Assembly (NCBI GenBank): GCA_964187785.1
Contig: OZ076409.1
Location: 72,170,001-72,234,000 of the forward strand
DNA: 64,000 bases
Origin: Amphiscolops sp. MND2022
Lineage: Eukaryota
Direction: 5' to 3'
Under the pieces are notes generated by a model. The model was not told where the DNA came from. It was given only the letters and a program-made list of their open reading frames with translations, and did no database searches. This document shows, piece after piece, positions 1,443 to 63,860 of this stretch. The position numbers and the translations under genes are program-made. The stretch's first letter is position 1. Every line of letters starts with the position of its first letter.

Positions 1443-1483
1443 AGTACATTCCATCTCCCCATCGGGGGAGATGAGAATGTACT
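1443..1483. other. Type II long inverted repeat (representative copy)
   Basis: AGTACATTC-CATCTCCCC-atcg-GGGGAGATG-a-GAATGTACT. Other copies near 10171, 16077, 28128, 30070, 32409, 46448, 62280 and 63562. Confidence 0.9.
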
Positions 1484-2296
1484 TTTCAAAAGCCAAAAAC
1501 TTCGAATTTTAAATCTTTTGTAACATTGTATGTAACTGTTGAAACGATGAACGAATGAAAATGCTTCTAGTACCTTCATCAATTTTTGCTTCAGCTCCTA
1601 TTTCTGCAGAACAAAACCAAAAGACACACTTACAGCAGTTAAGTTCGATTGTATAACTCAGTGAGTAAAGGTATGACTGAGGAAGTTCACAAGTTGTTTC
1701 AAAAGTTTCCGGCCTTCCAAAATCATGAAACGTCCACACAACCAAGATAGCAAGTGAAAGAATGCTGAATGCACCTTATTAGATGAGATAAATAATGTGT
1801 GGAACTTGCCATTATCTCAAGATGACGTTGATTTATGATCTTTTAAGGATAGTTCGATATGTGACCACAATAGTGGAAAACTTATTACTATTTGAAGAAC
1901 ACCGTGGAAAGCGTTCAGAAAGGACAGTATATTTGTTTCGAGCATGCATGCGTGTGTTCCTTTGGTGACGTTAGCTTAGTGTACATGACGGAGGTATTCG
2001 AGAGATTATGATAGAGTTTACTCACAAGTCTTTGTTTTTTTAAACTTTCTATGCCGTTGAGTACATTCGTAAGGTACATCCATCCCCTTCTCTGGGAATG
2101 TACGTTTGCCAAATGACTGTCATCCAAAATTCGTAATCCGGACGAGTTTAACTACATAAACATGTAATGAGCGTTTTCAATTCACAACCGAATAACATTT
2201 TTTTTCTCGAAAATGATGATGGTTTTGATTTTGATGTCTTCTACTTTTATCATCATGCAAACGACCTTACCATGTCTCTCTTCTGTCGTCATTTGT

Positions 2297-2465
2297 ACAA
2301 CGCCACATAGCGTTCCGACGCCCACCGTCTGTGGGCATGCCGAGGCATGCCCTTCGACGACGTATGCCAAATGAGCCATACCCGCACTCTGGAGTGCGGT
2401 AGCGGCTAGGTGGGCGGGGGTAATTCCCCAACAAAAAAATCGGCCGGCGGGTTGGGTCCTGCCGG
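2297..2465 (+). other. Conserved junction module: terminal arm, GCTAGGTG, head stem-loops (representative copy)
   Basis: ACAACGCC..., palindrome 2333-2352, TTCGACGACG, hairpin CCGCACTC-tg-GAGTGCGG, GCTAGGTG 2405-2412, GGGG-taatt-CCCC, CCGGCGGG-ttgggt-CCTGCCGG 2444-2465. Confidence 0.92.
2333..2352. promoter_or_regulatory. 20-bp palindrome GGGCATGCCGAGGCATGCCC, probable protein-binding site (29 copies)
   Basis: Present before every junction except 31431. It matches the p53-family consensus RRRCWWGYYY x2 at 19 of 20 positions. Function is inferred. Confidence 0.5.
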
Positions 2466-5400
2466 ACGTCAAATAGTGTGAAACATCCAGTAGGAAACGG
2501 CGACATTTATCAGCGATTTTAAAATTGAACCGTTAGAATTCGGACTTGGAGTGCATGCGGCCCCAAAATGCCCATACGAATCGAAGTTCCTGCTGACGTT
2601 AAGCGATAAAAACACTTTATAAAAAGTTATGGCCCATTTTACGTTCACTTAGAGAGGTAAAATGAGGAAAATTTTAACAAAGTTGCTGATAACTCAAAAT
2701 ACATTAATTTTTGGACTTTGACTGTGAAACAAGCTTGGAACCTTCATTTCGTGGCTGTGGCAATGCACTGAACACAAAAGATGTAAAGTTTTCACATTTT
2801 TTGAAAATTCGACATTTTTGAATTTTTTTCACTACTATCAGTACACTATATGTCAAAAACACCTCAGAAAAAAATTTTTATTTGCTTAAATTTAGAAACC
2901 TCGGTATCCATGGTTTCCGTCAGTACCTACTCGCAGCCAAACACTCAACAAATTGCATCCAATGTGAAAATAAAATTTTTTTCGGGGTCATAAGCGTTTC
3001 ACAAGGATTTCTCAACTTAGTATTAATTTACAAAATGGTCATTTTGAACACAATATTTTCATCGAGGCTTGTCGGCTATAGCCTTAATGTTCTAGAACGG
3101 TCCCACTGGCAACGTAGGAACCATTTATAGTAATAGAAAGTTTTAAAAAAATTTTTTCATCCGGTCTTCAGTCATTTTTCAGTCATTCGGAACTTAACTT
3201 AGAAAAATTTCGACCAAAATACCCATTTTTTGTCAGGTCGAAAATTCAAATTCAGATTTTTAAGCAAAATTATTAACTCTGACGTAACCCATGGGGCCCA
3301 TGATACTCAAAACAACAATTGACACTGGTATCAATGGCTCCAATAACATATGAGTCGCGATAAGACGTTATTTTGAGCAATACGTCTCAATTGAGGTAAA
3401 GATCTCGCAAGCCAGCGATCACTGTGAAATGTGATTTCATCAAAAATTTACTCATTTTTGTCAATCACTATGTGCACAGAATGCGTAGGGTGCGTTTCAG
3501 CACTATAATGAGGTATTTGAAAGCATCGAGTTGCTCAAGGGGTGGTATGAGACCTTTTTGTCCCATATACTTCTGTATTTTCCAAAATTTTTAGCCCAAT
3601 ATCTGGAAATACAAACATGACAAAATACTTTCAACTACTTTATTCAAAGGTTACAATATAGATGAACACTGTGGTTGATCAGAAACTTTCATCTCTTTCG
3701 TTTTCCGAAATATTTCCCTTCGCATGTGTTACATTTATAGCAGAAAAAAAATCGATACAGAAAAATACGCTATTTTGCTAATATAGAATCGCAATGATTG
3801 TGCCTAAAAACTCTTTAAACACTTCTAACGCGACCTTACGCACCCAAAAAGATCGAAAAGGCTATTCACAATGGTGACTTGTGCTCTTTCAACGATCCTG
3901 ACTGAACAATTTTCGCAAATTATTCAAGTACCTGTTAACTGAATCTCGTGATAGCCTTTTAAGTTGGCCTTGTGTCAACTTGGGAAGGCTATCACATCAA
4001 AAAATTTTCAACAAAAATACTTTTTGTTTATTGAAAATGACAGTCGATATATAATTTCGTGATTCTATGCTACCGTTAGTACCTTCCATTAAGTCACCTG
4101 ACGATTGCATTCAGTCTTTGATAAATACCTATGAACTCGAAGTCATATTTATAAATTTTTTGCTAAAAATAAACATCAAAATTATCCAAATTTATTAAAA
4201 TTGAGTCTTTATTGTTTTTGTTTTTCTTTTTCTACTGTTATTAGGCCCATCAACTTCCTACAGCCACGCTCTCTGTCATACTGTACAACGCCACATAGTG
4301 TTGCGACGTGCACGGTCTGTGGGCATGCCGAGGCATGCCCTTCGACGACGTATGCCGAATACCGCGGGCCTACGCCCGCGCTCCCCGGCTAGGTGGGCGG
4401 GGGTAATTCCCCAACAAAAATTACGGCCGGCGGGTTGGGTCCTGCCGGACGTTCAAATAGCGCGAAGCATCTAGTAGAAAACAAGGAGTCCCGAAACAGC
4501 GATTTTAAAATTGAACCGTTAGAATTTGGTTTTAGATTGCATGCGGCCCTAAAATCCCCATACGAATGGAAGTTCCTGCTGGCGTTAAGCGATTGAAATA
4601 ATATATAAAAAGTTATGGCCCATTTTTGGGTCACCGAGAAGGTCAAAATGAAGAAAATTTTAACTAAGTTGCTGATAACTCAAAATGTGTTAATTTTTGG
4701 ACTTTGACTGTGAAACAAGCTTGGAACCTTCATTTCTTGGCTGTGGCATTGCACTGAACACAAAAGATGTAAAGTTTTCACATTTTTTGAAAATTCGACA
4801 TTTTTGAATTTTTTTTCACTACTATCAGTACACTATATGTCAAAAACACCTCTGAAAAATTTTTTTATTTGCTTAAATTTAGAAACCTCGGTATCCATGG
4901 TTTCCGTCAGTACCTACTCGCTCCCAAACACTCAACAGTTTGCATCCAATGTGAAAATAAAATTTTTTTCGAGGTCTTAGGTGTTTCACAAGGATTTCTC
5001 AACTTAGTATCAATTTACAAATTGGTCATTTTGAACACATTATTTTCATCGAAGCGTGTCATATACCGCCCTAATGCTCACGAACGGGCCTACTGGCAAC
5101 GTTGGAACAATTTATCGTAATAGAAAGTTAAAAAAATTTTTTCACCCGGTCTTCAGTCATTTTTCACACATTCGGAACTTAACTTAGAAAAATTTCAACC
5201 GAAAAACCCATTTTTTGTCAGGTCGAAAATTCAAAGTCAGCTTTTTAAGCAAAATTATCAACTCTGACGTAACCAGTGGGGCCCATGATACTCAAAACAA
5301 CGATTGGGGTTGGTACCAATGGCTCCAATAACATATGAGTCGCGATAAAGCGTTATTTTGAGCAATATGTCTCAATTGAGGTAAAGATCTCGCAAGCCAG

Positions 5401-6381
5401 CGATCACTGTGAAATGTGATTTCATCAAAAATTTACTCTTTTTTGTCAATCACTATGTGCACAGAATGCGTAGGGTGCGTTTCAGCACTATAATGAGGTT
5501 TTTGAAGGCATCGAGTTGCTCAAGGGGTGGTATGAGACATTTTTGTCCCATATACTACTGTAGTTTCCAAAATTTTTACCCCAATATCTGGAAATACAAA
5601 CTTGACAAAATACTTTCAAGTACTTTATTCAAAGGTTACAATATAGATGAACACTGTGGTTGATAAGAAACTTTCATCTCTTTCGTTTTCGGAAATATTT
5701 CCGTTCGCATGTGTTACATTCATAGCAGAAAAAAAAATCGAAACTGAAAAATACGCTATTTTGCTGATATAGAATCGCAATGATTGTGCCTGAAAACTCT
5801 TTAAACACTTCTAACGCAACCTTACGCACCCAAAATGATCGAAAATGCTATTCACAATGGTGACATGTGCTCTTTCTACGATCCTGGCTGGACAAGGTTT
5901 GCATATTTTTCAAGTACCTGTCAGCTAAATCTTGTGATAGCCTTTTCAGTTGGCCTTGTGTCAACTTGGGAAGGCTATCACATCAAAAAACCATCAACAA
6001 AAATAATTTTTGTTTATTGGATCTTACAGTCGATACTTTTTTTTGGGATTCTATACTACCGTTAGTATATTTCATCAGGTCACATTACGATTGCATTCAG
6101 TCTTTGATAAAAACCTATGAACTCAAAGTCACATTTATATATTTTTTTTGCCAGAAAATAACATCAAAAATATCTAAAATATATAAAATAGAGTCTTTAA
6201 CATTTTTACGTTTCAAGTTTTTGCCGTTATTAGGCCAATCAACGTCCTAGAGCCACATCCTGCCACATACTGTACAACGCCACATAGTGTTGCGACGTGC
6301 ACAGTCTGTGGGCATGCCGAGGCATGCCCTTCGACGACGTATGCCGAATACCGCGGGCCTACGCCCGCGCTCCCCGGCTAG
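2410..6381 (+). repeat. Two family A units (2410-4392, 4393-6381)
   Basis: Collinear ~1.99-kb AT-rich units between junctions 2405, 4388 and 6377. Confidence 0.93.
3948..3995. other. Type I long inverted repeat (representative; one per A or B unit)
   Basis: GTGATAGCCTT-tt-AAGTTG-gccttgtgt-CAACTT-ggg-AAGGCTATCAC, about 440-460 bp upstream of the junction in the A and B units. Confidence 0.9.
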
Positions 6382-9300
6382 GTGGGCGGGGGTAATTCCC
6401 CAACTAAAAATTCGGCCGGCGGGTCGGGTCCTGCCGGCCGTCCAAAATCAAAATCCTACTAGTAGAAAACGGCATGTCAAACGAGCTATTTTTTTATTTA
6501 ACCGTTAGAATTTGGGTTTAGATTGCATGCGGCCATGAAATGGCCATACGAATTGAAGTTCCTGCTGACGTTTTGCGATTGAAACACTTTATAAAAAGTT
6601 ATGGCCAATTTGTCAGTCACCTAGAAGGGCAAAATGAGGAAAATTTTAACAAAGTCGCTGATATCTCAAAATGTGTTAATTTTTGGACTTTGACTGTGAA
6701 ACAAGCTTGGAACCTTCATTTCGTGGCTGTGGCATTGCACTGAACACAAAAGCTGTAAAGTTTTCACATTTTTTGAAAATTCGACATTTTTGAAATTTCT
6801 TTCACTACCATCAGTACCCCATATGTCAAAAACACCTCAGAAAAAAATTTTTATTTGCTTTAAATTGGAAACCTTGGTATCCATGGTTTCTGTCGGAACC
6901 TACTCGCAGCCAAACACCCAACAGTTTGCATCCAATGTGAAATAAAAAATTTTTTCGAGGTCATAAGCGTTTCACAAGGTTTTCATGATTTAGTATTAAA
7001 TTACATAGTGGTCATTTTAAACATAAAATTTTGGTCCAGGCATGTCGGATATAGTCTGAATGCTCACGAACGGTCCTACTGGCAACGTATGAACCATTTA
7101 TAGTAATAAAAAGTATTAAAAAAATTTTTTCACCCGGTCTTCAGTCATTTTTCAGACATTCGGAACTTAACTTAGAAAATTTTCGAACCAAATACCCATT
7201 TTTTGTCAGGTCGAAAATTGAAATTCAGCTAATAAAGCAAAATTTTTTACTCTGACGTAACCAGTGGGGTCCATGATACTCAAAAATACGATTGGGACTG
7301 GTACCAATGGCTCCTATATCATATGAGCCGCGATAAGATGTTATTTCGAGCAATACGTCTCAATTGAGGTAAACATCTCGCAAGCCTGGGATCACAGTGA
7401 ATTGTAATTTTATCAAAATTTTACTCATTTTTGTCAATCACTATGTGCACAGAGTGCGTAGGGGGAGTTGTAGCACTATAATGAGGTTTTTGAAGGCATC
7501 GGGTTGCTCAAGGGGTGGTATGAGACATTTTTTTCCTATATACTACTGTATTTTCCAAAACTTTTAGCCCATTATCTGCAAAAACTAACTTGACAAAATA
7601 CTTTGAGTTACTCTACTCAAAGCTTAGAACATAGATGAACACTGTGGTTGATCAGAAACTATTTACTATTTTGTTTTTAGAAAAAACTGCCTTGCATGTG
7701 TTACACTAGTGGCAGGAAAAATACCAGTAGCTCCAAAAATCACAAATTTGGACGGACAGACTTGCAATGATGCAAAGCAAAAACGTTTCAACAACTTCTG
7801 ACGCCACTTCTTTTACCCAAGAGGTTCGAAAACGCCATTAACAAGGCTGACATTCGCAATAAATAAGATCGAGGTCCATTTACTAACACTTAGGTTTCAA
7901 ATTTGTTTCTGAGAAACCCATTTTTGTCAGGTCGCAATTTCAAATTTAATTTGGGAAGCAAAATTTTTCACTCTGAAGCAAACCGCTGGGCCCAAATTAC
8001 TCAAAAACAACAAAAAGACTATCACCATATGCTCTAATAACATATGAGATGCGACAGTATGCTTTTAACACAAAAACTCTCATCCGAAGTAAACATGTTG
8101 AAAGCCTTGAATCACCGTGAGAAGTGATTTCATCAAAAAATATTTCTTTTTCGTCAATCACTATATACACAAAACCCGTTGTGTTAGTTTCAGCCGTGAA
8201 ATGAGGTTCTACCGTAATATGGGTTGCTCAAGGTGTTGTATAAGAGAAAATCGTCCTCTTTTCTACTAACTTCTTCAAATATTTCGACCCTTTGTCACAC
8301 GAAGTTAAAATTCAAAATCTCTTTGAATTGTTTCTTTAGGTTGGGATGAAGTGGTAGAACAATAACTTTGATCCAAGAATGCTAGTATTGGTGTTTGGAC
8401 CATGTTTGGATGAACAAATCGCAAAATCATGAAAAATTTGTTTCTTTTTTTGGTTATTTTGGCAGTACTAAAAATGTTAGCTGACAAATAATTTTTTCGA
8501 TAGCACCATTGGATTCCGCTCAAAAAGTTGGTTATATGACATGTGTAATAACGCCGTATCTTTTCAATTTAAATATATTTAAAAAGCCAACTTTTTTGAC
8601 CAAAATCCTAAAAATCATACCATTTCCTAAAAAATTTCAAATGCACCCCATTTGACGTATAACAATAGCACAGAAAACTATCATATACCGATCAACTCTA
8701 CTCTCATTGTGGATTATTAGCATTTTGTTTTGAACGAATTTTGATGGATATTAAAAAATTTTGAACCCTCCAAATATGGGCCAAAATTACACGAAAAAAT
8801 TGACCTTAAAATTTTAAAATGTCAAAAAATCATCAAAACTACAGCTTCTTGGGGTTCTATCAACTCCACGTGGTCCACAGAGTACGCTAAAACAGGTTTT
8901 ACCCGTTTTTGAGCAATATGTGAAAAAGCCGACATTTTTGGGAAAGAAAAACATCCCATTTCCTAAAAAAATTCAATTGCACGCCATTTGCCGTATGAGA
9001 ATAGCACGGAAAACTATCACATACCGATCAACTCTACTTTTATTGTAGATGATTAAAAATTAGTTTAAAACAAATTTTGACGGATATTAAAAAATTTTAA
9101 ACCCTTAAAAAATGGGCCAAAATTACACAAAAAAATTGACCTTAAAATTTTAAAATGTCACAAAATCATCAAAACCACAGCTTCTTGGGGTTCTATCAAC
9201 TCCACGTGGTCCACAGAGTACGCTAAAACAGGTTTTACCCGTTTTTGAGCAATATGTGAAAAAGCCGACATTTTTGGGGAAGAAAAAATAGGCATTTCCT

Positions 9301-11130
9301 AAAAAAATCAAATGCACGCCATTTGCCGTATAAGAATAGCACAGAAAACTATCATATACCGATCAACTCTACTCCCATTGTAGATTATTAGAATTTTATT
9401 TTGAATGATTTTTGATGGTTATTAAAAAATTTTGAGCCCCCCAAAAGCGGGCCAAAATTACACGAAAAAATTGACCTTAAAATTTTAAAATGTCAAATAA
9501 TCATCGAAACCACAGCTTCTTGGGGTTCTATCCACTCCACATGGCCCACAGAGTATGCCAAACCAGGTTTTGCGCGTTTTTGAGCAATATTTGAGAAAGC
9601 CGAGTTTTTTGGGGAAGAAAAACATAACATTTCCTAATAAAATTCAAATGCACGCCATTTGGCGTATGACAATAGCACAGAAAACTATCACATACTAATC
9701 AACTCTACTCTCTTTGTAGATCACCAGAGTTTTGCTTAGAATAAATTTTGATGAATATTTGTAAATTTTAAACCCTCCTAATATGGGCCAAAATCACACG
9801 GAAAAATTGACCGTAAGGTATTAAAATGTCAGAAATTCATCAAAACCACAGCTTCTTGGGGTTCTATCATTTCTATATGACTTTCAGAGTATACCAAACA
9901 AGGTATTAACATTGGGCGATAATTAAAAACACCAATTTTATTTTAGAAGAAAACCATAATAAGTTCAATATAAGAAGTGAATCATTCCATATATATACCC
10001 TGTCTTATATTTTAAATTAGCGATAATATATATACTTGATGTTTTTTGAAAGTGAGCTTCATAAGTGGTTGAGATGTGATAATACGTAAATGGATTCCAA
10101 GTTTCATCGAAATGTCAATGGAATACGTCCAATCAACTTCAATCTTAACAATTAGATAACAAAAAACCTAAGTACATTCCATCTCCCCATCGGGGAGATG
10201 AGAATGTACTTTTCAAAAACCAAAAACTTAGATGTTTTTTTTTGTAACACTTACTGTAACTGCTGAAATGATGAAAGAATAATTATGCTTCTAATAACTC
10301 CATGATTTTTTGCTTCAGCATTTTTTTTGCAGAACAAAACCATCAGACATATTTTTCGCAGTTAAGTTCGATCGTATTACCCAGTGAACAAAGGTATGGA
10401 AGGATGTTTACAAGTTGTTTCAAAACTTTCCCGCCTTCCAAAATAATGAAACGTCTACACAACCAAGATAGCAAATGAATGAATGCGGAATGCATCTTAT
10501 TAGATAAGATAAATAACGTGTAGAACTTACCTTTATCTGAAGTTGACGTTGATTTATGATCTTTAGAGGATAGTTTGATTTTTGACCATAATAGTGGGAA
10601 ACTAATTATTATATGAATGATGGCGTGGAAAGCGTTCAGAAATTGTAGTATTTTGGATTCGAGCATGTATGCGTGGGTTCCTTTGGTGGCGTTAGCTTAG
10701 TGTACATGATGGAAGTTTTCGATCTGTTATGATTAATTTTACTCACGAGTCTTTGTTTTTCCTATTTTTTTGCCATTAAGTACATTCATTCTATCCCCTT
10801 TTCTGAGAATGTACGTTTGTCAAATGACTGTCATCCAAATTTTGCATTCCCGAAGAGTTTAAATACATAACACGTGTTTAGCGTTTCCAAATCACAACCG
10901 AGTAACATTCTATTTTTTTTTCTCAAAATTGATAATGGTTTTGATTTTGGTGTCTTCTACTTTCATCATCCATCATAACAACCACCTTACCATGTCTCTC
11001 GCTTGTCTTCATTTTACAACGCCACATAGTGTAGCGACGCCCACAGTCTGTGGGCATGCCGAGGCATGCCCTTCGACGACGTATGCCAAATTTAGCGTTA
11101 GCCCGCGGTCACTACCGCGGTAGCAGCTAG
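6382..11130 (+). repeat. Family C unit (4749 bp)
   Basis: A-like head, diverged internal duplication, four 336-bp subrepeats (~8610-9950), type II hairpin 10171-10210, terminal arm. Confidence 0.92.
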
Positions 11131-14100
11131 GTGGGCGGGGGTAATTCCCCAACAAAAATTACGGCCGGCGGGTTGGGTCCTGCCGGACGTTCAAATAGCG
11201 CGAAGCATCTAGTAGAAAACAAGGAGTCCTGAAACAGCGATTTTAAAATTGAACCGTTAGAATTTGGTTTTAGATTGCATGCGGCCCTAAAATCCCCATA
11301 CGAATGGAAGTTCCTGCTGGCGTTAAGCGATTGAAATAATATATAAAAAGTTATGGCCCATTTTTGGGTCACCGAGAAGGTCAAAATGAAGAAAATTTTA
11401 ACTAAGTTGCTGATAACTCAAAATGTGTTAATTTTTGGACTTTGACTGTGAAACAAGCTTGGAACCTTCATTTCGTGGCTGTGGCATTGCACTGAACACA
11501 AAAGATGTAAAGTTTTCACATTTTTTGAAAATTCGACATTTTTGAATTTTTTTTCACTACTATCAGTACACTATATGTCAAAAATACCTCTGAAAAATTT
11601 TTTTATTTGCTTAAATTTAGAAACCTCGGTATCCATGGTTTCCGTCAGTACCTACTCGCTGCCAAACACTCAACAGTTTGCATCCAATGTGAAAATAAAA
11701 TTTTTTTCGAGGTCTTAGGTGTTTCACAAGGATTTCTCAACTTAGTATCAATTTACAAATTGGTCATTTTGAACACATTATTTTCATCGAAGCGTGTCAT
11801 ATACCGCGCTAATGCTCACGAACGGGCCTACTGGCAACGTTGGGACCATTTATAGTAATAAAAAGTTTTAAAAAAATTTTTTCACCCCGTCTTCAGTCAT
11901 TTTACACACTTTCGGAACTTAACTTAGAAAAATTTCGACCAAAATATCCATTTTTTGTCAGGTCGAAAAATCAAATTCAGATTTTTAAGCAAAATTATTA
12001 ACTCTGACGTAACCCATGGGGCCCATGATACTCAAACCAACGATTGACACTGGTATCAATGGCTCCAATAACATATGAGTCGCGAAAAGACGTTATTTTG
12101 AGCATTACGTCTCAATTGAGGTAAAGATCTTGCAAGCCAGCGATCACTGTGAAATGTAATTTCATCAAAAATTTACTCTTTTTTGTCAATCACTATGTGC
12201 ACAGAATGCGTAGGGTGCGTTTCAGCACTATAATGAGGTTTTTGAAGGCATCGAGTTGCTCAAGGGGTGGTATGAGACACTTTTGTCCCATATACTACTG
12301 TATTTTCCAAAATTTTTAGCCCAATATCTGGAAATACAAACTTGACAAAATACTTTCAACTACTTTATTCAAAGGTTACAATATAGATGAACACTGTGGT
12401 TGATCAGAAACTTTCATCTCTTTCGTTTTCCGAAATATTTCCCTTCGCATGTGTTACATTCGTAGCAGAAAAAAAAATCGAAACTGAAAAATACGCAATT
12501 TTGCTAATATAGAATCGCAATGATTGTGCCTAAAAACTCTTTAAACACTTCTAACGCAACCTTACGCACCCAAAATGATCGAAAATGCTATTCACAATGG
12601 TGACATGTGCTCTTTCTACGATCCTGGCTGGACAAGGTTTGCATATTTTTCAAGTACCTGTCAGCTAAATCTTGTGATAGCCTTTTCAGTTGGCCTTGTG
12701 TCAACTTGGGAAGGCTATCACATCAAAAAACCATCAACAAAAATAATTTTTGTTTATTGGATCTTACAGTCGATACTTTCTTTCGTGATTTTATACTACC
12801 GTTAGTATATTTCATCAGGTCACCTTACGATTGCATTCAGTCTTTGATAAAAACCTATGAACTCAAAGTCACATTTATATATTTTTTTGCCAGAAAAAAA
12901 CCTCAGAAATATCTAAAATATATAAAATAGAGTCTTTAACATTTTTACGTTTCAAGTTTTTGCCGTTCTTAGGCCAATCAACGTCCTAGAGCCACATCCA
13001 GTCATACTGTACAACGCCACATAGTGTTGCGACGTGCAGAGTCTGTGGGCATGCCGAGGCATGCCCTTCGACGACGTATGCCGAATACCGCGGGCCTACG
13101 CCCGCGCTCCCCGGCTAGGTGGGCGGGGGTAATTCCCCAACAAAAATTACGGCCGGCGGGTTGGGTCCTGCCGGACGTCAAATAGCAAAGAATATCTAGT
13201 AGGAAACGGCGACACAGAATCGCGATTTTTAAATCTAACCACAATTTTTTGGACTTGGAGTGCATGCGGCCCTGAAATGCCCATACGAATCGAAGTTCCT
13301 GCTGACATTAAGCGATTGAAATAATATATAAAAAGTTATGGCCCATTTTTCACTCACAAAGAAGGGTAAAATGAGGAAATTTTTAACAAAGTCGCTGATA
13401 ACTCAAAATGTGTTAATTTTTGGACATTGACTGTGAAACAAGCTCGGAACCTTCATTTCGTGGCTGTGGCATTGCACTGAACACAAAAGATGTAAAGTTT
13501 TTACATTTTTTGAAAATTCGAAACTTTTGAAATTTTTTTCACTACTATCAGTACCCCATATGTCAAAAACGCCTCAGAAAAAATTTTTTATTTGCTTTAA
13601 ATTGGAAACCTTGGTATCCATGGTTTCTGTCGGATCCTACTCGCAGTCAAACACCCAACAGTTTGCATCCAATGTGGAAATAAAAATTTTTTCGGGGTCA
13701 TAAGCGTTTCACAAGGATTTCTCAACTTAGTTTCAATTTACAAATTGGTCACATTGAACACATTATTTTCATCGAAGCGCGTCAGATACCGCCCTAAAGC
13801 TCACGAACGGTCCTACTGGCAACGTAGCAACCATTTATAGTAATATAAAAGATTAAAAAAATTTTTTCACCCGGTCTTCAGTCATTTTTCAGTCATTCGG
13901 AACTTAACTTAGAAAAATTTCGACCAAAATACCCATTTTTTGTCAGGTCGAAAAATCAAATTCAGATTTTTAGGCAAAATTATTAACTCTGACGTAACTC
14001 ATGGGGCCCATGATACTCAAAACAACGATTGACACTGGTATCAATGGCTCCAATAACATATGAGTCGCGATCGGACGTTATTTTGAGCAATACGTCTCAA

Positions 14101-51391: not shown

Positions 51392-54300
51392 GTGCGGGGG
51401 GGTAACCCCAACAAATATATTGGAGGATTCGGGTAGGGTCCTGAATCCGATTTTAACTCTAATAGCTATCGATAGGAAATCTTGCAAAAATTTCGGGATC
51501 TCGTGATCTAACCATAGGATTTTAAAGTTGGAGCGGCCCCCACCAGATTTTCCGAAAATTAGCGCCCCCCACCGGGTTCCATACCCCGGGAAATTTTTTT
51601 CTGGCCACACGGGCGACCGTTAGGGGGTCATTTTAGGGGTAAAATTCATATTGGGCCACATAACTTTTTTTCTGTTGATTTAAAACTTTGGAACCCTGCT
51701 AAAAGTTTCTTGACCGTGTTGCAGGGGCCCCGAAGGTCCAAACCAAATTTTTCTATCTTGAAGCTATCTCCAAGTACCCCCCCGCTCAAACCGTTATTTT
51801 TCCGGAAACGCAGGTTTTTGACCCGGAAGGAGTCGTCTGAGCGCGGGGTCGTTAGGTGATGTATTGGGGACGGCCTTGAGACGAAGTGGGGGACAAGTAG
51901 TTTGCCAACCTCAATTTACCCCCCGGACGGGAAATGACCGTTATATGAGCGTGAAAAATGCCCCCCTCCACGTTTTACCGCTATTTCCGGTGTGAAGGAG
52001 TGGGAGTAGCGCGTCGGGTGTTATATAACAAAAGTAGGTTTAGACAAGGACCTATCGGAAACATGTAGTTTGGGACCCCCTGGACCAACCCGTTAGCGGG
52101 AAATGGGGCTTCCGCCTCCTTTTTTTAGTGCTAAAACCGTAAAATGGGCATTGAGGGGTAAATATCTCGTGAACGCGTGGAGCAATCGTGTCCATCACTA
52201 CTACAAGGTTTCATACCCATGATATGGTGCCTTCAGGGGGGCAAACAGATTTCCGCTATCTATCACCGTTACCGACTTGGCCCCCCAGCCTAACCGCTAT
52301 GTGACCGGAAATGTCACTTTTTGAGCCCAAAGGGTCGGTCCCAGCCGGGGAACGTTAGGTAACTTATTGTAGTACTCAATGAGACGAGTTGGGGGATATA
52401 GTTTTAGTCACCCCCCGTTACCCCTTGGGACCGGAAATGACCGTTATGTGGGTAAAATTGCAATTTTTATACTTTTTCAAGTGTATTTAGGTGCGGAAGG
52501 AGTGGTAATAGGTGCTTGGACACTATATGAGGTAAGGGAGGACGTGAGGCGTGCATTCGGAAATAACCGTTATGTTGACCCTAAAGTCCCCCTGGTACCG
52601 TAAACGACCGGAAATGGTCAAATTTTGTGTCTATTGGGTACAAATGTTTTGTATTTTGTAGATAAAAGTATCTATTAGGTGTTTCGACGGTCTACAGTAG
52701 TGAACATAGTCATGAAACCTTGTGGGGGGTAACGGTATATAGCACCGGAAGTCAAAACGTTGGAGACAGGATAGGTTTTTTGGTTTTAAAATGTCTTTCG
52801 GCGTAATTTTTCCGACTCTTGTGGACTATTTTTAAAAATTAAAGTTTTTCCATATAGTTTCAGAGACTCCGAAACCTCAACCAACATAACCGTTACCTTA
52901 TGATAGCCTTTCAAGTTGGCCTGGTGTCAACTTGGAAGCGCTATCCTTCTGAAATCGTTAATCAAGAGTGTTTTTGGGTAGGTATATATTGCATTAGTAC
53001 CAATTAGAGCTTCATCAACAGTGTATCAACGACAAAAACTATGCCGTCATGATTCCGTTATTAGAATCATAGTGAGCAAATTGTTGAAAAAATGGTTTTT
53101 TCCATACAAAATGTGTCCTAAATGCCAGGCAACCTATTTACCTAACAAATGGTATTAATTGGAATGTTTGTAACAGATTTATAAAAGTTCAAATTGATAA
53201 TTACATTTCATTATGGAAGCTGAAACGTCATATTTTAGTTTAATTAACGTCAACGCCACACACTTTACATCAACGCACACCGTCTGTGGGCATGCCGAGG
53301 CATGCCCTTCGACGACGTATGACAAATCCATATCAAACGACGCCCGTACATCCCGGGCTAGGTGCGGGGGGGAAACCCCATCCCTTATCTTGGAGGATTC
53401 GGGTAGGGTCCTGAATCCGAGTTCAGTGCCGCCAGCTCTCAGTAGAAATCTGGGCATTTTTTTGCGATCTCGTGATCTAACCATAGGATTTTAAAGTTGG
53501 AGCGGCCCCCACCAGATTTTCCAAAGTTATTCGCCCCCCACCGGGTTCCAGCGTGATTGAAATATTCTGACGGGGTACACGGGCGACCGTTAGGGGTCAT
53601 TTTGGGGGTAAAATTTATATCCGGTCGCATAACTTTTTTCCTGTTGGATTAAAACTTTGGGACCCTGCTAAAAGTTTCTTGACCGTGTTGCGGGGGCTCC
53701 GGAGGTCCAAACCAAATTTTTCTATCTTGAAGCTATCTCCAAGTACCCCCCCGCCCAAACCGTTATTTTTCCGGAAACGCAGGTTTTTGACCCGGAAGGA
53801 GTCGTCTGAGCGCGGGGTCGTTAGGTGATGTATTGGGGACGGCCTTGAGACGAAGCGGGGGATATATAGTTTGCCGACCCCAGTTTACCCCCCGGACGGG
53901 AAATGACCGTTATATGAGCGGGAAAAATGCCCCCCTCCACGTTTTACCGCTATTTCCGGTGTGAAGGAGTGGGAGTAGCGCTTCGGGTGCCATATATCAA
54001 AAATAGGTTTAGACAAGGACCTATCGGAAACATGTAGTTTGGGACCCCCTGGTCCAACCCGTTAGCGAGAAATGGGGCTTCCGCCTCCTTTTTTTACTGC
54101 TAAAACCGTAAAATGGGCGTTGAGGGGTAAATATCTCGTGAACGCGTGGAGCAATCGTGTCCATCACTACTACAAGGTTTCATACCCATGATATGGTGCC
54201 TTCAGGGGGGCAAACAGATTTCCGCTATCTATCACCGTTACCGACTTGGCCCCCCAGCCTAACCGCTATGTGACCGGAAATGTCACTTTTTGAGCCCAAA

Positions 54301-57300
54301 GGGTCGGTCCCAGCCGGGGAACGTTAGGTAACTTATTGTAGTACTCAATGAGACGAGTTGGGGGATATAGTTTCAGTCAACCCCCGTTACCCCTTGGGAC
54401 CGGAAATGACCGTTATGTGGGTAAATTTGCAATTTTTATACTCTTTGAAGTGTATTTAGGTGCGGAAGGAGTGGTAATAGGTGCTTGGACACTATATGAT
54501 GTAATGGAGGTCGTGAGGAGAGCATTCGGAAATAACCGTTATGTTGACCCCAAAGTCCCCCTGGTACCGTTAACGACCGGAAATGGCCAAATTTTGTGTC
54601 TATTGGGTACAAATGTTTGGTATTTTATGGATAAAAGTACCTGGAAGGTGTTTTAAAGGCCTCCAGAAGTGAACATAGTCATGAAACCTTGTGGGGGGTA
54701 ACGGTATATAGCACCGGAAGTCCAAACCGTTGGTCACAGAATAGGTTTTTTGGTTTCAATATGTCTTTAGGCATAGTTTTGTGGGTTGAATCGTCATAAT
54801 ATCAACTAATACGGACTTTTTTCGGAAATAAAATTTTTTCACATTAGTTTCAGGGACCTCCAATGCTTCAGTCAAAATAACCGTTACATTTTGATAGCCT
54901 TTCAAGTTGACCTGGTGTCAACTTGGAAGGGCTATCCTTCTAAAATCGTTAATCAACAGTGTTTTTGGGTAGGTATATGTTGCATTAGTACCAATTAGAG
55001 CTTCATCAACAGTTTGCCAACGGCAAAAACGATGTCGTGATAATTCCGTTATAAAAATATTAGTTAACAAATTGTTTTCAAAGTTGATTTTTTCCATTAA
55101 AAATGTGTCCTAATGCCACCAAATTGAATAAAATAATAAATGGTATTGACTAAAACTAAATAACAATGAAAAAGAAGATCAACATTTTTATTAGGTCTCA
55201 TTATGGAAGCAGAAACCTCACGTTTTAACTTAATTAACGTCAACGCCACATACTTTACATCAACGCCCACCGTCTGTGGGCATGCCGAGGCATGCCCTTC
55301 GACGACGTATACCAAACAACCTCCATATCTACACCCACCCGCGGTAGCAGCTAGGTGCGGGGGGGAAACCCCAACAAAATTTTTGGAGGATTCGGGTAGG
55401 GTCCTGAATCCGATTTTAACTCTAATAGCTATCGATAGGAAATCTTGCAAAAATTTCGGGATCTCGTGATCTAACCATAGGATTTTAAAGTTGGAGCGGC
55501 CCCCACCAGATTTTCCAAAGTTATTCGCCCCCCACCGGGTTCCAGCGTGACTGAAATATTTTGACGGGGTACACGGGCGACCGTTAGGGGTCATTTTGGG
55601 GGTAAAATTTATAAAAGTTCGCATAACTTTTTTCCTGTTGGATTAAAACTTTGGGACCCTGCTAAAAGTTTCTTGACCGTGTTGCGGGGGCTCCGGAGGT
55701 CCAAACCAAATTTTTCTATCTTGAAGCTATCTCCAAGTACCCCCCCGCCCAAACCGTTATTTTTCCGGAAACGCAGGTTTTTGACCCGGAAGGAGTCGTC
55801 TGAGCGCGGGGTCGTTAGGTGATGTATTGGGGACGGCCTTGCGACGAAGCGGGGGATATATAGTTTGCCGACCCCAGTTTACCCCCCGCACGGGAAATGA
55901 CCGTTATATGAGCGGGAAAAATGCCCCCCTCCACGTTTTACCGCTATTTCCGGTGTGAAGGAGTGGGAGTAGCGCTTCGGGTGTTATATAACAAAAATAG
56001 GTTTAGACAAGGACCTATCGGAAACATGTAGTTTGGGACCCCCTGGACCAACCCGTTAGCGGGAAATGGGGCTTCCGCCTCCTTTTTTTACTGCTAAAAC
56101 CGTAAAATGGGCATTGAGGGGTAAATATCTCGTGAACGCGTGGAGCAATCGTGTCCATCACTACTACAAGGTTTCATACCCATGATATGGTGCCTTCAGG
56201 GGGGCAAACAGATTTCCGCTATCTATCACCGTTACCGACTTGGCCCCCCAGCCTAACCGCTATGTGACCGGAAATGTCACTTTTTGAGCCCAAAGGGTCG
56301 GTCTCAGCCAGGGAACGTTAGGTAACTTATTGTAGTACTCATTGAGACGAGTTGGGGGATATAGTTTCAGTCAACCCCCGTTACCCCTTGGGACCGGAAA
56401 TGACCGTTATGTGGGTAAATTTGCATTTTTTATACTCTTTGAAGTGCATTTATGTGCGGAATGAGTGGTAATAGGTGCTTGGACACTATATGAGGTAAGG
56501 GAGGACGTGAGGCGAGCATTCAAAAATAACCGTTATGTTGACCCCAAAGTCCCCCTGGTACCGGAAGTGACCGGAATTTGTCAAATTTTGTGTTTTTAGG
56601 GTACAAATGTTTAGTATTTTGTAGATAAAAGTATCTATTAGGTGTTTCGACGGTCTGCAATAGTGAACATAGTCATGAAACCTTGTGGGGGGTAACGGGG
56701 TATTTAGCACCGGAAGTCCAAACCGTTGGACACAGGATAGGTTTTTGGTTTGAAAATGTCTTTCGGCGTACTTTTGTCGACTATTATGGACTATTATTTA
56801 AAATTAAAGTTTTTCCATATAGTTTCAGAGACTCCGAAACCTCAACCAACATAACCGTTACATTTTGATAGCCTTTCAAGTTGGCCTGGTGTCAACTTGG
56901 AAGCGCTATCCTTCTGAAATCGTTAATCAAGAGTGTTTTTGGGTAGGTATATATTGCATTAGTACCAATTAGAGCTTCATCAACAGTGTATCAACGACAA
57001 AAACTATGCCGTCATGATTCCGTTATCAGAATCATAGTGAGCAAATTGTTGAAAAAAATGGTTTTTTCCATACAAAATGTGTCCTAAATGCCAGGAAACC
57101 TATTTACTTAAAAAATGGTATTGATTGGAATGTATGTAACAGATTTATAAAAGTTCAAATTGATTATTACGTTTCATTATGGAAACTGAAACGTAATATT
57201 TTAGTTTAATTAACGTCAACGCCACACACTTTACATCAACGCCCACCGTCTGTGGGCATGCCGAGGCATGCCCTTCGACGACGTATACCAAATACATACC

Positions 57301-60300
57301 CAAACGACGCCCGTACATCCCGGGCTAGGTGCGGGGGGGTAACCCCAACTTTTTTCTTGGAGGAATCGGGTAGGGTCCTGATTCCGAGCTTAGTGCCGCC
57401 AGCTATCGTTAAAAACCCATACCTTTTAAACCCGATCTCGGGAACTAACCACGCCCCTTCTTTAATTTTTTGGCCCCCACTCACTTTTTGAGAGTAGATC
57501 GCCCCCCACTGGGTTCCAAGTTGGGCAAAAATGGAGGTCATGGGTAACGGGGACCGTTAAGGGGTAACTCAGGGGGTAAAATTTATTTTTTGCGTCATAT
57601 CTTTTCCCCCCGTGGATTTAGCGCTTCCGGTCAGCAGACAAAACCTCATGTACGTGATAAGGGGCCTCCGTAGGTCCAAACAAAATTTTTCTATCATGCA
57701 CCGTTACGGACTTGCCCCCCCGGCCCAACCGTTATTTTGCCGGAAATTGCCTTTTTTGACAGGGAAGGAGTCGTCTGAGCACGGAGTCGTTTGGTAATGT
57801 TTTGTAGTGCATCTGGAGACGTGTTGGGGGACATGTAGTTTGCCGACCCCAGTTTACCCCTCGGACGGGAAATGACCGTTATGTGAGTTTTAAAAATGCC
57901 CCCCTTCAATTTTCCCCGCAATTTCCGGTGTGAAGGAGTGGGAGTAGGGTGTCGGGTGCCATATATCAAAAGTAGGTTTAGACAAGGACCAACCGGAAAC
58001 ATGTGGTTTCGGACCCCCTGACCCAACCCGTTAGCCGCTATTAGGGTGATCGCCTCCTTTTTTTGCTGTTAAAACCGGAAAACGGGCATTGAGGGGTAAA
58101 TATCTCGTGAACGCGTGGAGCAATCGTGTCCATCACTACTACAAGGTTTCATACCCATGATATGGTGCCTTCAGGGGGGCAAACAGATTACCGCTATCTA
58201 TCACCGTTACCGACTTGGCCCCCCAGCCTAACCGCTATGTGACCGGAAATTGCACTTTTTGAGCCCAAAGGGTCGATCCTAGCCGGGCAACGATAGGTAA
58301 CATATTGTAGTACTCATTGAGACGAGTTGGGGGATCTAGTTTCAGTCACCCCCGTTACCCCTTGAGACCGGAAATGACCGTTATGTGAGTAGAATTGCAA
58401 TTTTTATACCTTTTGAAGGGCATTTAGAAGCGGAAGGAATGGTAATAGGTGCTTGGACACTATATGATGTAATGGAGGTCGTGAGGAGAGCATTCGGAAG
58501 TAACCGTTACGTTGACCCCAAAGTCCCCCTGGTACCGTTAACAACCGGAAATGGCCAGATTTTGTGTTTGTAGGGTACAAATGTTTGGTATTTTATGGAT
58601 AAAAGTACCTGGAAGGTGTTTTAAAGGCCTCCAGAAGTGAACATAGTCAAGAAACTTTGTGGGGGGTAACGGTATATAGCACCGGAAGTCCAAACCGTTA
58701 GTTACAGAATAGGTTTTTTGGTTTCAAAATGTCTTTAGGCGTAGTTTTGTGGGTGGAATCGTCATAATATCAACTAATACGGACTTTTTTCGGAAATAAA
58801 ATTTTTTCACATTAGTTTCAGGGACCTCCAATGTTTCAGTCAACATAACCGTTACATTTTGATAGCCTTTCAAGTTGGCCTGGTGTCAACTTGGAAGGGC
58901 TATCCTTCTAAAATCGTTAATCAAGAGTGTTTTTGGGTAGGTATATGTTGCATTAGTACCAATTAGAGCTTCATCAACAGTTTGCCAACGGCAAAAACGA
59001 TGTCGTGATAATTCCGTTATAAGAATATTAATTAACAAATTGTTTACAAAGTTGATTTTTTTCATTTAAAATGTGTCCTAATGCCACCAAATTGAATAAA
59101 ATAATAAATGGTATTGACTAAAACTACATAACATTGAAAAAGAACATCAACATTTTTATTAGGTCTCATTATGGAAGCTGAAACCTCACGTTTTAACTTG
59201 ATTAACGTCAACGCCACATACTTTACATCAACGCCCACCGTCTGTGGGCATGCCGAGGCATGCCCTTCGACGACGTATACCAAACAATCTCCATATCTAC
59301 ACCCGATTGCGGTAGCAGCTAGGTGCGGGGGGGAAACCCCAACAAAATATTTGGAGGATTCGGGTAGGGTCCTGAATCCGAGTTCAGTGCTGCCAGCTTT
59401 CGTTAAGAAAATTTGGATAGGATTCGGGATCTCGTGATCTAACCATAGGATTTTAAAGTTGGAGCGGCCCCCACCAGATTTTCCGAAAATTAGCGCCCCC
59501 CACCGGGTTCCATACCCCGGAAAATTTTTTTCTGGCCACACGGGCGACCGTTAGGGGGTCATTTTAGGGGTAAAATTCATATTGGGCCACATAACTTTTT
59601 TTCTGTTGATTTAAAACTTTGGGACCCTGCTAAAAGTTTCTTGGCCGTGTTGCAGGGGCCCCGGAGGTCCAAACCAAATTTTTCTATCTTGAAGCTATCT
59701 CCAAGTACCCCCCCGCCCAAAACGTTATTTTTCCGGAAACGCAGGTTTTTGACCCGGAAGGAGTCGTCGGAGCGCGGGGTCGTTAGGTGATGTATTGGGG
59801 ACGGCCTTGAGACGAAGTGGGGGACATGCAGTTTGCCAACCCCAGTTTACCCCCCGGACGGGAAATGACCGTTATATGAGCGGGAAAAATGCCCCCCTCC
59901 ACGTTTTACCGCTATTTCCGGTGTGAAGGAGTGGGAGTAGCGCGTCGGGTGCCATATATCAAAAGTAGGTTTAAACAAGGAACTATCGGAAACATGTGGT
60001 TTGGGACCCCCTGGACCAACCCGTTAGCAGGAAATGGGGCTTCCGCCTCCTTTTTTTACGGTTAAAACCGGAAAATGGGCATTGAGGGGTAAATATCTCG
60101 TGAACGCGTGGAGCTACGGTGTCCATCACTACTACAAGGTTTCATACCCATGATATGGTGCCTTCAGGGGGGCAAACAGATTTCCGCTATCTATCACCGT
60201 TACCGACTTGGCCCCCCAGCCTAACCGCTATGTGACCGGAAATGTCACTTTTTGAGCCCAAAGGGTCGGTCCCAGCCGGGGAACGTTAGGTAACTTATTG

Positions 60301-61297
60301 TAGTACTCAATGAGACGAGTTGGGGGACATAGTTTCAGTCACCCCCCGTTACCCCTTGTGACCGGAAATGACCGTTATGTGGGTAAATTTGCAAGTTTTA
60401 TACTTTTTCAAGTGTATTTATTTGCGGAAGGAGTGGTAATAGGTGCTTGGACACTATATGATGATGGGGAGGACGTGAGGCGAGCATTCGAAAATAACCG
60501 TTATGTTGACCCCAAAGTCCCCCTGGTACCGGAAGAGACCGGAAATTGTCAAATTTTGTGTTTTTAGGGTACAAATGTTTGGTGTTTTATGGATTAAAGT
60601 ACAGGTTAGGTGTTTTCACGGTCTGCAGTAGTGAACATAGTTATGAAACCTTGTGGGGGGTTACGGTATATAGCACCGGAAGTCCAAAACGTTGGAGACA
60701 GGTTAGGTTTTTTGGTTTTAAAATGTCTTTCAGCGTACTTTTGTCCACTATTATGAACTATTTTTAAAAATTAAAGTTTTTCCATATAGTTTCAGAGACT
60801 CTCAAACCTCAACCAACATAACCGTTACATTTTGATAGCCTTTCAAGTTGGCCTGGTGTCAACTTGGAAGGGCTATCCTTCAAAAATCATTAATCAAGTG
60901 TGTTTTTGAGTATGTTTGTTTTACTTTAGAATCAATTAGAGCTTCAAGAAAAGTTTGCCAACGGTAAAAACTATGTCGTGATGATTCCGTTATTAGAATA
61001 ATAGTTAACAAAATATTGATAAAGTTGATTTTTTACATTTCAAATGTGTCCTAAATGCCAGAAAACCTCTTTACCAAACAAATGGTATTGATTGAATTGT
61101 ATATTACAGCTAATAAAAGTTCAAATTGAATATTAGGTTTCATTATGGAAGCTGAAATGTCATATTATAGTTTCATTAACGTCAACGCCACATACTTTAC
61201 ATCAACGCCCACCGTCTGTGGGCATGCCGAGGCATGCCCTTCGACGACGTATGCCAAATTCCTCCAACACAACACCCTCGAGCGCGGTAGCAGCTAG
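51392..61297 (+). repeat. Five family B units (51392-53361, 53362-55354, 55355-57328, 57329-59322, 59323-61297)
   Basis: Start GTGCGGGGGGG. The GC-richer body is not alignable by eye to A, but the terminal arm and type I hairpin are shared; lengths 1970-1994 bp. Confidence 0.93.
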
Positions 61298-63860
61298 GTG
61301 GCCGTGTCTTTTCGACGTGCTTTTGCATTGAGGAGTGGGTAGGGCCCCGCGACGACCTAGAAGAATTGGATGCTCACCGAAACGTGCAGAATTCTACGAG
61401 ATCTCATAGTTTGAGCCATACGATTTTTCTGAAATTTGGCATGTGGCCTGGAATTGGTGAGTAGGTAAAACGTGTAGAAGGTAATTTTTCCCAAATTCCA
61501 CTGTGAGAGGAGATATGGGCAAATAACGGACCCAAAAATGGGGAAAATGCACATTTTTCAAGTTTGTCAGCCAATATCTCTTTTCCAGGTGCCCGTAGCG
61601 TTCCGCACGTGGACATCAATATTGCTCAGCGCTGTTGGAGGAGTGCGTGGACAAATTTTGGTTTAAATCGGACTTAAACTTGACGAGAAATTAACGGTTT
61701 TTTGGGCGTTTCCGGGGTAAATTTTTTAACGGTCCAGCTTATCTTTGCCATTTTTTCGAAAATGTACATGCCTAAAGGCCTCCCCCTGGCCGAATATACT
61801 CCCAGCAAACCCATTTGGCCCTAAATACGGAGTTTCAGCGTTCCAGCATTCCGGGGCGGAAAGTTGTGGGACTTGGAAAAATTTCAAAATTTTTTCAAAA
61901 TTTTTTTTTCCCGTTTTCCGGGCCCCCAATGAAGGGGAACGACCCCCCAACCAGTATTTTGAGTGAATTCATGTGGAACGCCCATGTTTGGAGGAGAAAA
62001 ATGCCGTTTAGCACATCTTTTTTATCTTAACTTGACATTGACTTATTTCGTTTTGAATGTGATGTTAGGATATATGAAGCATGTTAAAAGTTGAAGTTTT
62101 GAGTCTTTATCTCATCGGAAAACCATTGAGATACAAGCAGTTTTGCTAAAAACGATTTTCATTGTAGGTTAGCAGAGTATTAGTACACTTTGATGTCATT
62201 TGAGTATATTTTTCTTCTATATAATAACTGTTTTTATGTATTTATTCCAATTTATCTCATCTTTTAACATCAAGCAGTTGAGTACATTTCATCTCCCTTT
62301 CGGGGGAGATGAGAATGTACTCGCTAAAAACCTAATGCTATGGCGCCAATGTTTGGATGGGAAGTTTTCTATGCTTTGAAAAAAGTTATTTTTAATTACT
62401 TGATTTTTTAAAACAATAATTAACATGAAGTACATTACTTGCTCCTACTACTACCACCATACATCTCTAACGTCAACGCCCCCTGCTTGCATCAACGCCC
62501 CATCGTCCGTGGGCATGCCGAGGCATGCCCTTCGACGACGTATGCCAAATGCCCAGTGCCACGCAGTCTTTTCCCGCTAGGTGGCCGTGTCTTTTCGACG
62601 TGCTTTTGCATTGAGGAGTGGGTAGGGCCCCGCGACGACCTAGAAGAATTGGATGCTCACCGAAACGTGCAGAATTCTACGAGATCTCATAGTTTGAGCC
62701 ATACGATTTTTCTGAAATTTGGCATGTGGCCTGGAATTGGTGAGTAGGTAAAACGTGTAGAAGGTAATTTTTCCCAAATTCCACTGTGAGAGGAGATATG
62801 GGCAAATAACGGACCCAAAAATGGCAAAAATGCACATTTTTCAACTTTGTCAGCCAATATCTCTTTTCCAGGTGCCCATAGCGTTCCGCACGTGGACGTC
62901 AATATTGCTCAGCGCTGTTGGAGGAGTGCGTGGACAAATTTTGGTTTGAATCGGACTGAAACTTGACGAGAAATTAACGGTTTTTTGGGCGTTTCCGGGG
63001 TAAATTTTTTAACGGTCCAGCTTATCTTTGCCATTTTTTCGAAAATGTACATGCCTAAAGGCCTCCCCCTGGCCGAATTTACTCCCAGCAAACCCATTTG
63101 GCCCTAAATACGGAGTTTCAGCGTTCCAGCATTCCGGGGCGGAAAGTTGTGGGACTTGGAAAAATTTCAAAATTTTTTCAAAATTTTTTTTTCCCGTTTT
63201 CCGGGCCCCCAATGAAGGGGAACGACCCCCCAACCAGTATTTTGAGTGAATTCATGTGGAACGCCCATGTTTGGAGGAGAAAAATGCCGTTTAGCACATA
63301 TTTTTATCTTAACTTGACATTGACTTATGACGTTTTGAATGTGATGTTAGGATATATGAAGCATGTTAAAAGTTGAAGTTTTGAGTCTTTATCTCATCGG
63401 AAAACCATTGAGATACAAGCAGTTTTGCTAAAAACGATTTTCATTGTAGGTTAGCAGAGTATTAGTACACTTTGATGTCATTTGAGTATTTTTTTCTTCT
63501 ATATAATAACTGTTTTTATGTATTTATTCCAATTTATCTCATCTTTTAACATCAAGCAGTTGAGTACATTTCATCTCCCTTTCGGGGGAGATGAGAATGT
63601 ACTCGCTAAAAACCTAATGCTATGGCGCCAATGTTTGGATGGGAAGTTTTCTATGCTTTGAAAAAAGTTATTTTTAATTACTTGATTTTTTAAAACAATA
63701 ATTAACATGAAGTACATTACTTGCTCCTACTACTACCACCATACATCTCTAACGTCAACGCCCCCTGCTTGCATCAACGCCCACCGTCCGTGGGCATGCC
63801 GAGGCATGCCCTTCGACGACGTATGCCAAATGCCCAGTGCCACGCAGTCATTATCGCTAG
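61298..63860 (+). repeat. Two near-identical tandem family E units (61298-62580, 62581-63860)
   Basis: Direct duplicates at offset ~1283; type II hairpins 62280-62322 and 63562-63604. Confidence 0.93.

Follow-up and report, generated by a model that had tools for sequence, protein, structure and literature searches.

The closest described relatives of the DNA examined here are Helitron1 (HLE1) and its non-autonomous derivatives, tandem arrays included, which excerpts of the literature portray as non-coding, devoid of terminal inverted repeats (TIRs), joined at precise head-to-tail junctions and equipped with internal tandem repeats (PMC11417382, PMC5876387, PMC12001565). The right end of a Helitron reads CTAG with a GC-rich hairpin upstream (PMC11417382, PMC12001565), and non-canonical ends exist as well (PMC5148889, PMC13085455), in both cases according to excerpts. 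The single-stranded circles of Helraiser are inactive until they become double-stranded, and a minus-strand primer has been proposed in the excerpted text (PMC5876387). Here, we report on 64,000 nucleotides of Amphiscolops sp. MND2022 (contig OZ076409.1, positions 72,170,001 to 72,234,000), a stretch that we refer to as the window and that consists of non-coding units arranged head to tail, with an internal hairpin that may bear on how such circles gain their second strand. The hairpin is a real, selected feature in an unusual array of what are probably non-autonomous rolling-circle elements, an internal cis hairpin of putative role. Our tentative reading, to which we assign a probability of roughly 40%, is that the units are non-autonomous rolling-circle (HUH, Helitron-like) elements, and that the hairpin is a plus-strand cis signal for second-strand priming or protein loading.

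The 8-mer GCTAGGTG occurs 30 times in the window, on the plus strand only, and a near-invariant arm lies upstream of 29 of the 30 copies. Units were delimited after CTAG at these 30 GCTAG|GTG junctions, which gave 29 complete units and a partial C unit at the window start; the exact cut could fall elsewhere within the 8-mer. The AT-rich window is a mosaic array (1..64000) in which all units lie on the plus strand, in the order C A A C A A D A A A A C E F D A A A' A A C A A B B B B B E2 E2 B. The complete units comprise 14 of family A (1978-1992 bp), one A' (1992 bp), five B (1970-1994 bp), three C (4749-4764 bp), two D (1279 bp), one E (1271 bp), two E2 (1280 and 1283 bp) and one F (1070 bp), and approximately 200 bp of head is distantly related across all families. 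No open reading frame exceeds 175 amino acids in the window, no tRNA was detected by ARAGORN and there was no Rfam match at E<=1. Protein-coding units were considered and rejected, as indels are mostly not multiples of 3.

A preliminary description of this DNA had proposed one long internal hairpin per unit, of two mutually exclusive types, and the proposal holds well: exactly one intact hairpin is present in 28 of the 29 complete units, and just F lacks both types. Type I is found in every unit of the 1970-1994 bp class, 20 in number (14 A, one A' and five B), 435-464 bp before the junction, in agreement with the earlier estimate of about 440-460 bp. Type II is found in all five D/E units (1271-1283 bp) at 296-306 bp before the junction, and in all three complete C units plus the partial first unit at 959-973 bp, close to the earlier estimates of about 290-300 bp and 960 bp. 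All hairpins lie on the plus strand. With the unit first and the hairpin in brackets, type I occupies the A units 2410-4392 (3950..3993), 4393-6381 (5936..5979), 11131-13118 (12676..12719), 13119-15103 (14660..14703), 16383-18372 (17925..17968), 18373-20360 (19916..19959), 20361-22342 (21902..21945), 22343-24330 (23887..23930), 32715-34702 (34258..34301), 34703-36688 (36244..36287), 38681-40672 (40222..40265), 40673-42660 (42215..42258), 47422-49413 (48963..49006) and 49414-51391 (50957..51000); the A' unit 36689-38680 (38220..38265, a fully Watson-Crick variant with a longer loop); and the B units 51392-53361 (52902..52945), 53362-55354 (54893..54936), 55355-57328 (56867..56910), 57329-59322 (58861..58904) and 59323-61297 (60834..60877). 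Type II occupies the partial C unit (1444..1482), the C units 6382-11130 (10172..10209), 24331-29094 (28129..28167) and 42661-47421 (46449..46487), the D units 15104-16382 (16077..16115) and 31436-32714 (32409..32447), the E unit 29095-30365 (30070..30108) and the E2 units 61298-62580 (62282..62320) and 62581-63860 (63564..63602). Covariance models of both types, as the preliminary description had suggested, recover the 20 type I and nine type II sites and one metagenome contig, L001, as their sole strong matches, with the training sequences matching by construction. Every one of the 16 distinct hairpin variants beats dinucleotide shuffles (z -5.8 to -9.0), and an equally good long hairpin arose in none of 32 shuffled unit bodies.

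Evidence that the hairpin is maintained by selection comes from the C units. A second, decayed type II copy, missed in the account of a single hairpin per unit although the one intact copy was correctly noted, is present on the plus strand in all four C tails, approximately 345 bp before the junction, which by alignment is the position of the D/E hairpin. The covariance model detects three of the four (E 0.002-0.006), at 2053..2113 (E 0.006), 10772..10824 (E 0.002) and 28738..28798 (E 0.006), and the most decayed, at 47073..47116, is identified by alignment only, having been missed by the model. Across three independent tails (the first unit was excluded because it is 99% identical to another), the intact C hairpin has an identity of 0.98, the highest among the 224 windows that lie upstream of the arm, whose mean is 0.76; the second copy reaches no more than 0.66. 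Since the intact copy was conserved while the redundant one decayed, the hairpin is selected, one copy suffices and no single distance from the end is required. Selection on the internal hairpins, once per unit and in two sequence types, is therefore supported. The hairpin had also been called an island of conservation, which is accurate between families and among C copies but not within A or within B, where the hairpin window (0.89 and 0.98, respectively) is no more conserved than the homogenised mid-body. The metagenome contig L001 (OBOP01004400.1, 1172 bp, about one monomer), the sole match of its scan, has an E-like body and the arm, and its type II hairpin is intact, keeps the bulge and lies 317 bp ahead of a GCGAG|GTG junction. 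In addition, a 151-bp record of sequencing run X2 matches the B reference solely over 60833-60877, the type I hairpin, and continues in A-like letters.

It had further been proposed that hairpin type tracks size class. Counted by copy the separation is complete (20/0 versus 0/8, Fisher p 3e-7), but copies are not independent, and when lineages are counted instead the link is weak (Fisher p 0.10 for 2 versus 3 lineages, 0.03 for 3 versus 4). Furthermore, type II is present in both 1.28 and 4.75 kb units, and in the C units a type II tail follows a head and body of the A family, which counts against strict tracking. Of the proposed second cis element with two specificity groups, what survives is a selected, once-per-unit element in two sequence types, without the strict link to unit size.

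Under RNA folding rules, all 16 variants consist of a paired 5' arm and a 3' arm with one unpaired base. A bulge on the 3' side had been noticed in type II, where it is confirmed, but it is not specific to that type: in type I the extra base slides by several positions, and in type II it keeps one position, where A or T is found. The non-Watson-Crick pairs are G-U on the plus strand in 12 of the 16 variants and on the minus strand in none, and A-C pairs are absent. Wobbles confined to the plus strand together with no A-C pairs indicate that the plus strand is read as a single strand, whether single-stranded DNA (ssDNA) or RNA. Two-sided compensatory changes are no more frequent than in shuffles, with one pair in type II (344 of 500 shuffles as high) and two pairs in type I (63 of 500), which indicates that the stems are conserved in sequence, and covariation was rejected as proof of hairpin structure. 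Likewise, the variants reported earlier to improve pairing are present at 38225/38231 and 54904, but they are one-sided changes from G-T to Watson-Crick pairs and not compensations. In the 20 copies of the type I 5' arm, a 22-nt stretch begins at an invariant T and takes in two loop bases; its positions 1-10 are invariant, 11-13 variable and 14-18 invariant, and the type I 3' arm is more variable. Type II has 16-17 conserved bases per arm.

The second line of evidence is the unit boundary. The junction GCTAG|GTG (example 2405..2412) begins at 2405, 4388, 6377, 11126, 13114, 15099, 16378, 18368, 20356, 22338, 24326, 29090, 30361, 31431, 32710, 34698, 36684, 38676, 40668, 42656, 47417, 49409, 51387, 53357, 55350, 57324, 59318, 61293, 62576 and 63856, always on the plus strand, and switches of unit family fall inside it. 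The terminal arm (2298..2409 on the plus strand, one of 29 copies) consists of two AACGCC-like direct repeats, the invariant palindrome GGCATGCCGAGGCATGCC, a variable GC-rich segment that often forms a hairpin, and the CTAG end. Across the 29 arms, the segment between arm and CTAG tracks the upstream unit (Mantel r 0.64, p 0.0002; partial 0.64) and is independent of the downstream head (Mantel r 0.10; partial 0.01). Because the segment goes with the unit before it rather than with the head after it, family switches avoid the longer identical arm and lie in the 8 bp. If unequal crossing-over were responsible, switches should prefer the arm, where the identical stretch is longer; the simpler reading is therefore that an enzyme acts at the 8-bp motif. 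The 3' end is CTAG at all 30 junctions, and immediately before it 13 of the 21 distinct tails form a fold of -6 kcal/mol or better. Sequencing run X1 contributes an additional new tail ending in GCTAG, plus a joint of tail to B head; stretches that the run records do not cover, and a single joint on the opposite strand, were disregarded. The units have no TIRs, and an array of TIR DNA transposons or miniature inverted-repeat transposable elements was rejected on this ground. [quoted passage not shown]

The arm palindrome is located at 2333-2352, in the 28 other arms and at 812-831 of L001. In all 29 arms and L001 it fits, with one mismatch, the p53-family response element (two RRRCWWGYYY half-sites with no spacer), and it may be a host-factor site or a transposase site. 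At 879-886, L001 reads GCGAG|GTG in place of the usual junction, which means that this lineage can do without the T of CTAG. All units begin with GT and end with AG, and B heads begin with GTGCG; neither a branch point nor a polypyrimidine tract nor an intron match in Rfam is evident, and the intron-like borders are probably a coincidence.

On the rolling-circle reading, an HUH transposase supplied in trans would nick and rejoin at GCTAG|GTG, and the plus strand would be peeled into a unit-length circle closed at CTAG|GTG. Circles of different families would re-enter at existing junctions to build a mosaic concatemer, and the array would then grow by unequal exchange. The hairpin would fold on the displaced plus strand and be recognised by its sequence and the one-base 3' bulge, with bulge and wobbles marking the strand, much as a single extrahelical base selects the strand of integron attC sites in the excerpted account (PMC2727003). 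On the plus circle it would most plausibly be the site of second-strand priming or of helper protein loading, and the two hairpin types could mark two helper specificities. A signal of 40-46 nt that is strand-biased, present once per unit and lost when redundant is a small and direct target for deletion, inversion or swap.

The units resemble Helitron1 in the features listed at the outset and in the 3' CTAG (a CTRR end); a hairpin just before it is present in 13 of the 21 distinct tails and weak or missing in the other eight. They differ in that they start with GTG and not TC, several unrelated families meet at one exact junction, an invariant palindromic arm lies 60-75 bp from the end, a 5' hairpin has a covarying stem, and a conserved internal hairpin and fixed length classes are present. 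Because the TC start is missing, the array works like a Helitron but is not classed as one. Helentron/HINE/DINE-1 and Helitron2 (HLE2) elements are similarly described, in excerpts, as non-autonomous, with hairpins near both ends and central tandem repeats (PMC4067079, PMC5148889), but the units here are without the 11-16-bp subterminal inverted repeat between ends, and the CTAG|GTG junction is without T-rich ends or a TT target. Replitrons share the HUH-type logic, a short motif common to both ends and a right-end hairpin (PMC10288648, in excerpt); unlike them, no transposase is seen here, and mixed-family arrays are not described for Replitrons in the excerpted text (PMC10288648).

Several observations weigh against the rolling-circle reading. 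No Rep/helicase partner was found in the window or in the scanned contig collections. Every head starts with GTG and never TC, CTAGTC is absent from both strands of the window, eight of the 21 distinct tails have little or no terminal hairpin, and L001 ends in CGAG rather than CTAG. A priming site has no obvious need for fixed unit lengths or for a fixed spacing between hairpin and arm. Finally, the strand effect is larger under RNA than under DNA energies: the advantage conferred by G-T pairs is 1-3 kcal/mol as DNA versus up to approximately 10 as RNA, common type I variants open a small internal loop under DNA energies, and the one-bulge geometry is uniform when RNA rules are applied.

These energies lead to the explanation that survives best beside our own, that the hairpins act as RNA within a plus-strand transcript of the unit, either as a small RNA (element-borne and resembling a microRNA or short-hairpin RNA) or as a protein-binding hairpin, one per element. 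We regard this as rather unlikely overall, although the case for it is strong in type I. It accounts for wobbles that are all G-U on the plus strand and for a one-bulge geometry that is uniform under RNA rules; the type I 5' 22-mer is conserved across its 20 copies like a mature microRNA, and the p53-family-like arm palindrome could drive transcription across the junction. However, the loops are 3-7 nt and no conserved lower stem appeared in 12 folds with flanks. Drosha and Dicer substrates have a loop of at least 8 nt and a lower stem, and short-loop hairpins do not fit. The conserved part of each type II arm is just 16-17 bases, and also counting against this idea are the absence of an Rfam match at E<=1, of a Pol III box or poly(A) signal common to the hairpin surroundings, and of a seed match for the type I 5' arm elsewhere in the window. 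Should the hairpins prove to be a source of small RNAs, these would be regulators carried by the element itself, made from a precursor whose short loop is unusual. A hammerhead ribozyme was rejected, because the pattern matches have no shared stem and no Rfam match.

Unit length is where a different explanation does best. Length is kept within approximately 1% between families that barely align: A and B have 49% global identity and differ by 10 bp, D and E have 51% and differ by 4-8 bp, and B carries an internal duplication of approximately 500 bp that is missing from A. Hairpin and arm core are separated by 326-344 bp in type I units, 189-194 bp in D/E, 207 bp in L001 and 843-857 bp in C, and the spacer between them can hardly be aligned, if at all, from one family to another (z -2.1 to 3.6; six between-family pairs plus A' versus A). 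Even in A' versus A and E versus E2, whose bodies align well, the spacer is barely alignable. The notion that hairpin type merely rides on a homologous tail module is thereby weakened, as length is kept in a spacer that barely aligns. This spacer (e.g. 4000-4270) is the most variable part of the unit, yet its length is fixed within a hairpin type. Each of the 28 complete units with a hairpin, whichever of the three size classes it belongs to, has the start of the intact copy at 0.761-0.798 of its length; with just three classes, the shared 76-80% position could be a coincidence. One would not expect such length classes in ordinary non-autonomous transposons, and they may point to packaging or some other ruler. 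Unit lengths as nucleosome multiples were dropped, since no single repeat length fits convincingly.

The constancy of length would be explained best if the units were integrated concatemers of non-coding satellites of ssDNA viruses, in which a helper capsid sets length and the hairpin is a helper-specific signal for packaging or trans-replication. Begomovirus deltasatellites are non-coding and size-constrained, with an origin region and a second conserved stem-loop (PMC4756297), and origins of circular ssDNA viruses are recombination hot-spots (PMC3187698), both as given in excerpts; the units are likewise non-coding and of fixed size and have a second stem-loop, and L001, at 1172 bp, spans about one monomer. 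Unlike deltasatellites, the units form a chromosomal concatemer in three size classes, with type II in both the 1.28 and 4.75 kb units, and the break is not within a hairpin loop. No conserved CRESS-type nonanucleotide is present, the motif giving six scattered matches of which none lies in a shared loop. There were no true matches in viral contigs and no helper was found, and we consider this explanation decidedly improbable. In a broader form, the array would be a chromosomal store of helper-dependent, non-coding circular replicons of an animal-like host, joined at a shared nick site, with lengths set by a physical ruler (capsid or replication geometry) and a hairpin that is a helper-specific single-strand signal undescribed for eukaryotic rolling-circle elements; this version, too, we hold to be improbable, if slightly less so.

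That a Crypton-like tyrosine recombinase builds the array by crossovers within the 8-bp GCTAGGTG core, with the bulged hairpin as an attC-like single-strand recombination site, is very unlikely. It would explain why neighbours share the 8-bp core with no target duplication beyond it, and the hairpin has an extrahelical base as attC does in the excerpted description (PMC2727003). The likeness to attC is one of design principle only, an imperfect hairpin whose extra base tells the strands apart (PMC2727003, in excerpt); the hairpins here are sequence-conserved and without the attC core, and no inverted binding arms flank the 8-bp core. Linkage among the 14 A units is unbroken across the hairpin (r 0.8-0.9 versus 0.1-0.5 at many mid-body positions), and the hairpin was accordingly rejected as a crossover site. 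Scarcely credible is the idea of a complex satellite in which the hairpins are passive relics and owe their likeness to gene conversion or to self-correction of palindromes: there is unequal exchange and mid-body homogenisation in the array, and independent lineages are few, but self-correction would remove bulge and wobbles, and all 16 variants still have them; the flanks are unrelated between families, the hairpin recurs in L001, and the C units, whose redundant copy decayed while the other stayed, largely refute it.

Searches beyond the window yielded little other than L001. Scanning viral contigs with the arm, type II and type I patterns gave no matches; four viral-contig matches to a loose head pattern are without arm and hairpins and were dismissed as chance, as was one genome-contig match, a bacterial palindrome rich in GC that has none of the other features. 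BLAST of 60700-62460 against phages and plasmids gave no hits. Six sequence motifs of the array occur in no open-access PMC or bioRxiv paper text; repeat libraries in supplements could already hold these families. A conserved internal hairpin in Helitrons is not described in the titles or abstract openings of those open-access PMC and bioRxiv papers that the searches brought up.

The remaining features concern the make-up of the array. It bears marks of unequal exchange in the form of higher-order repeats and mid-body mosaics, and its mid-bodies are homogenised. The C unit is a chimera: head and body are those of A to approximately position 1476, and there follow a diverged segment resembling A, some four copies of a 336-bp repeat and a tail resembling that of E; the repeats lie on the plus strand at 26531..27912 and also at 1-1227, 8581-9959 and 44861-46161. 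The F unit (30366..31435, plus strand) has a genuine head, 62% identical over 212 bp to the head of L001, but is without the arm and both hairpin types and ends at a bare GCTAG, as if termination or joining had occurred at a cryptic site and the short motif alone were enough to join. It holds a weaker, unrelated hairpin near 31170-31215 (z -3.1), at approximately 75% of unit length.

Hairpins are also found in the unit heads, +30..+70 from the junction (e.g. 57357-57388), with the loop TAGGGT and a strongly covarying stem. In the example at 2441..2467 on the plus strand, a GGG core is located at +39..+44 from the junction (+55 in D), the loop is 6 nt and the stem covaries between families; a clean two-sided stem change is seen between B copies. 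The head hairpins give better structural evidence than the internal type I and type II hairpins. Unit bodies show an AA/TT dinucleotide period of approximately 10 bp (peaks at lags 10-11, 20, 29 and 40), as in curved or nucleosome-positioning DNA. In addition, CCGTTA, which resembles a Myb site, occurs 11 times on the plus strand of one B unit (e.g. 53362-55354).

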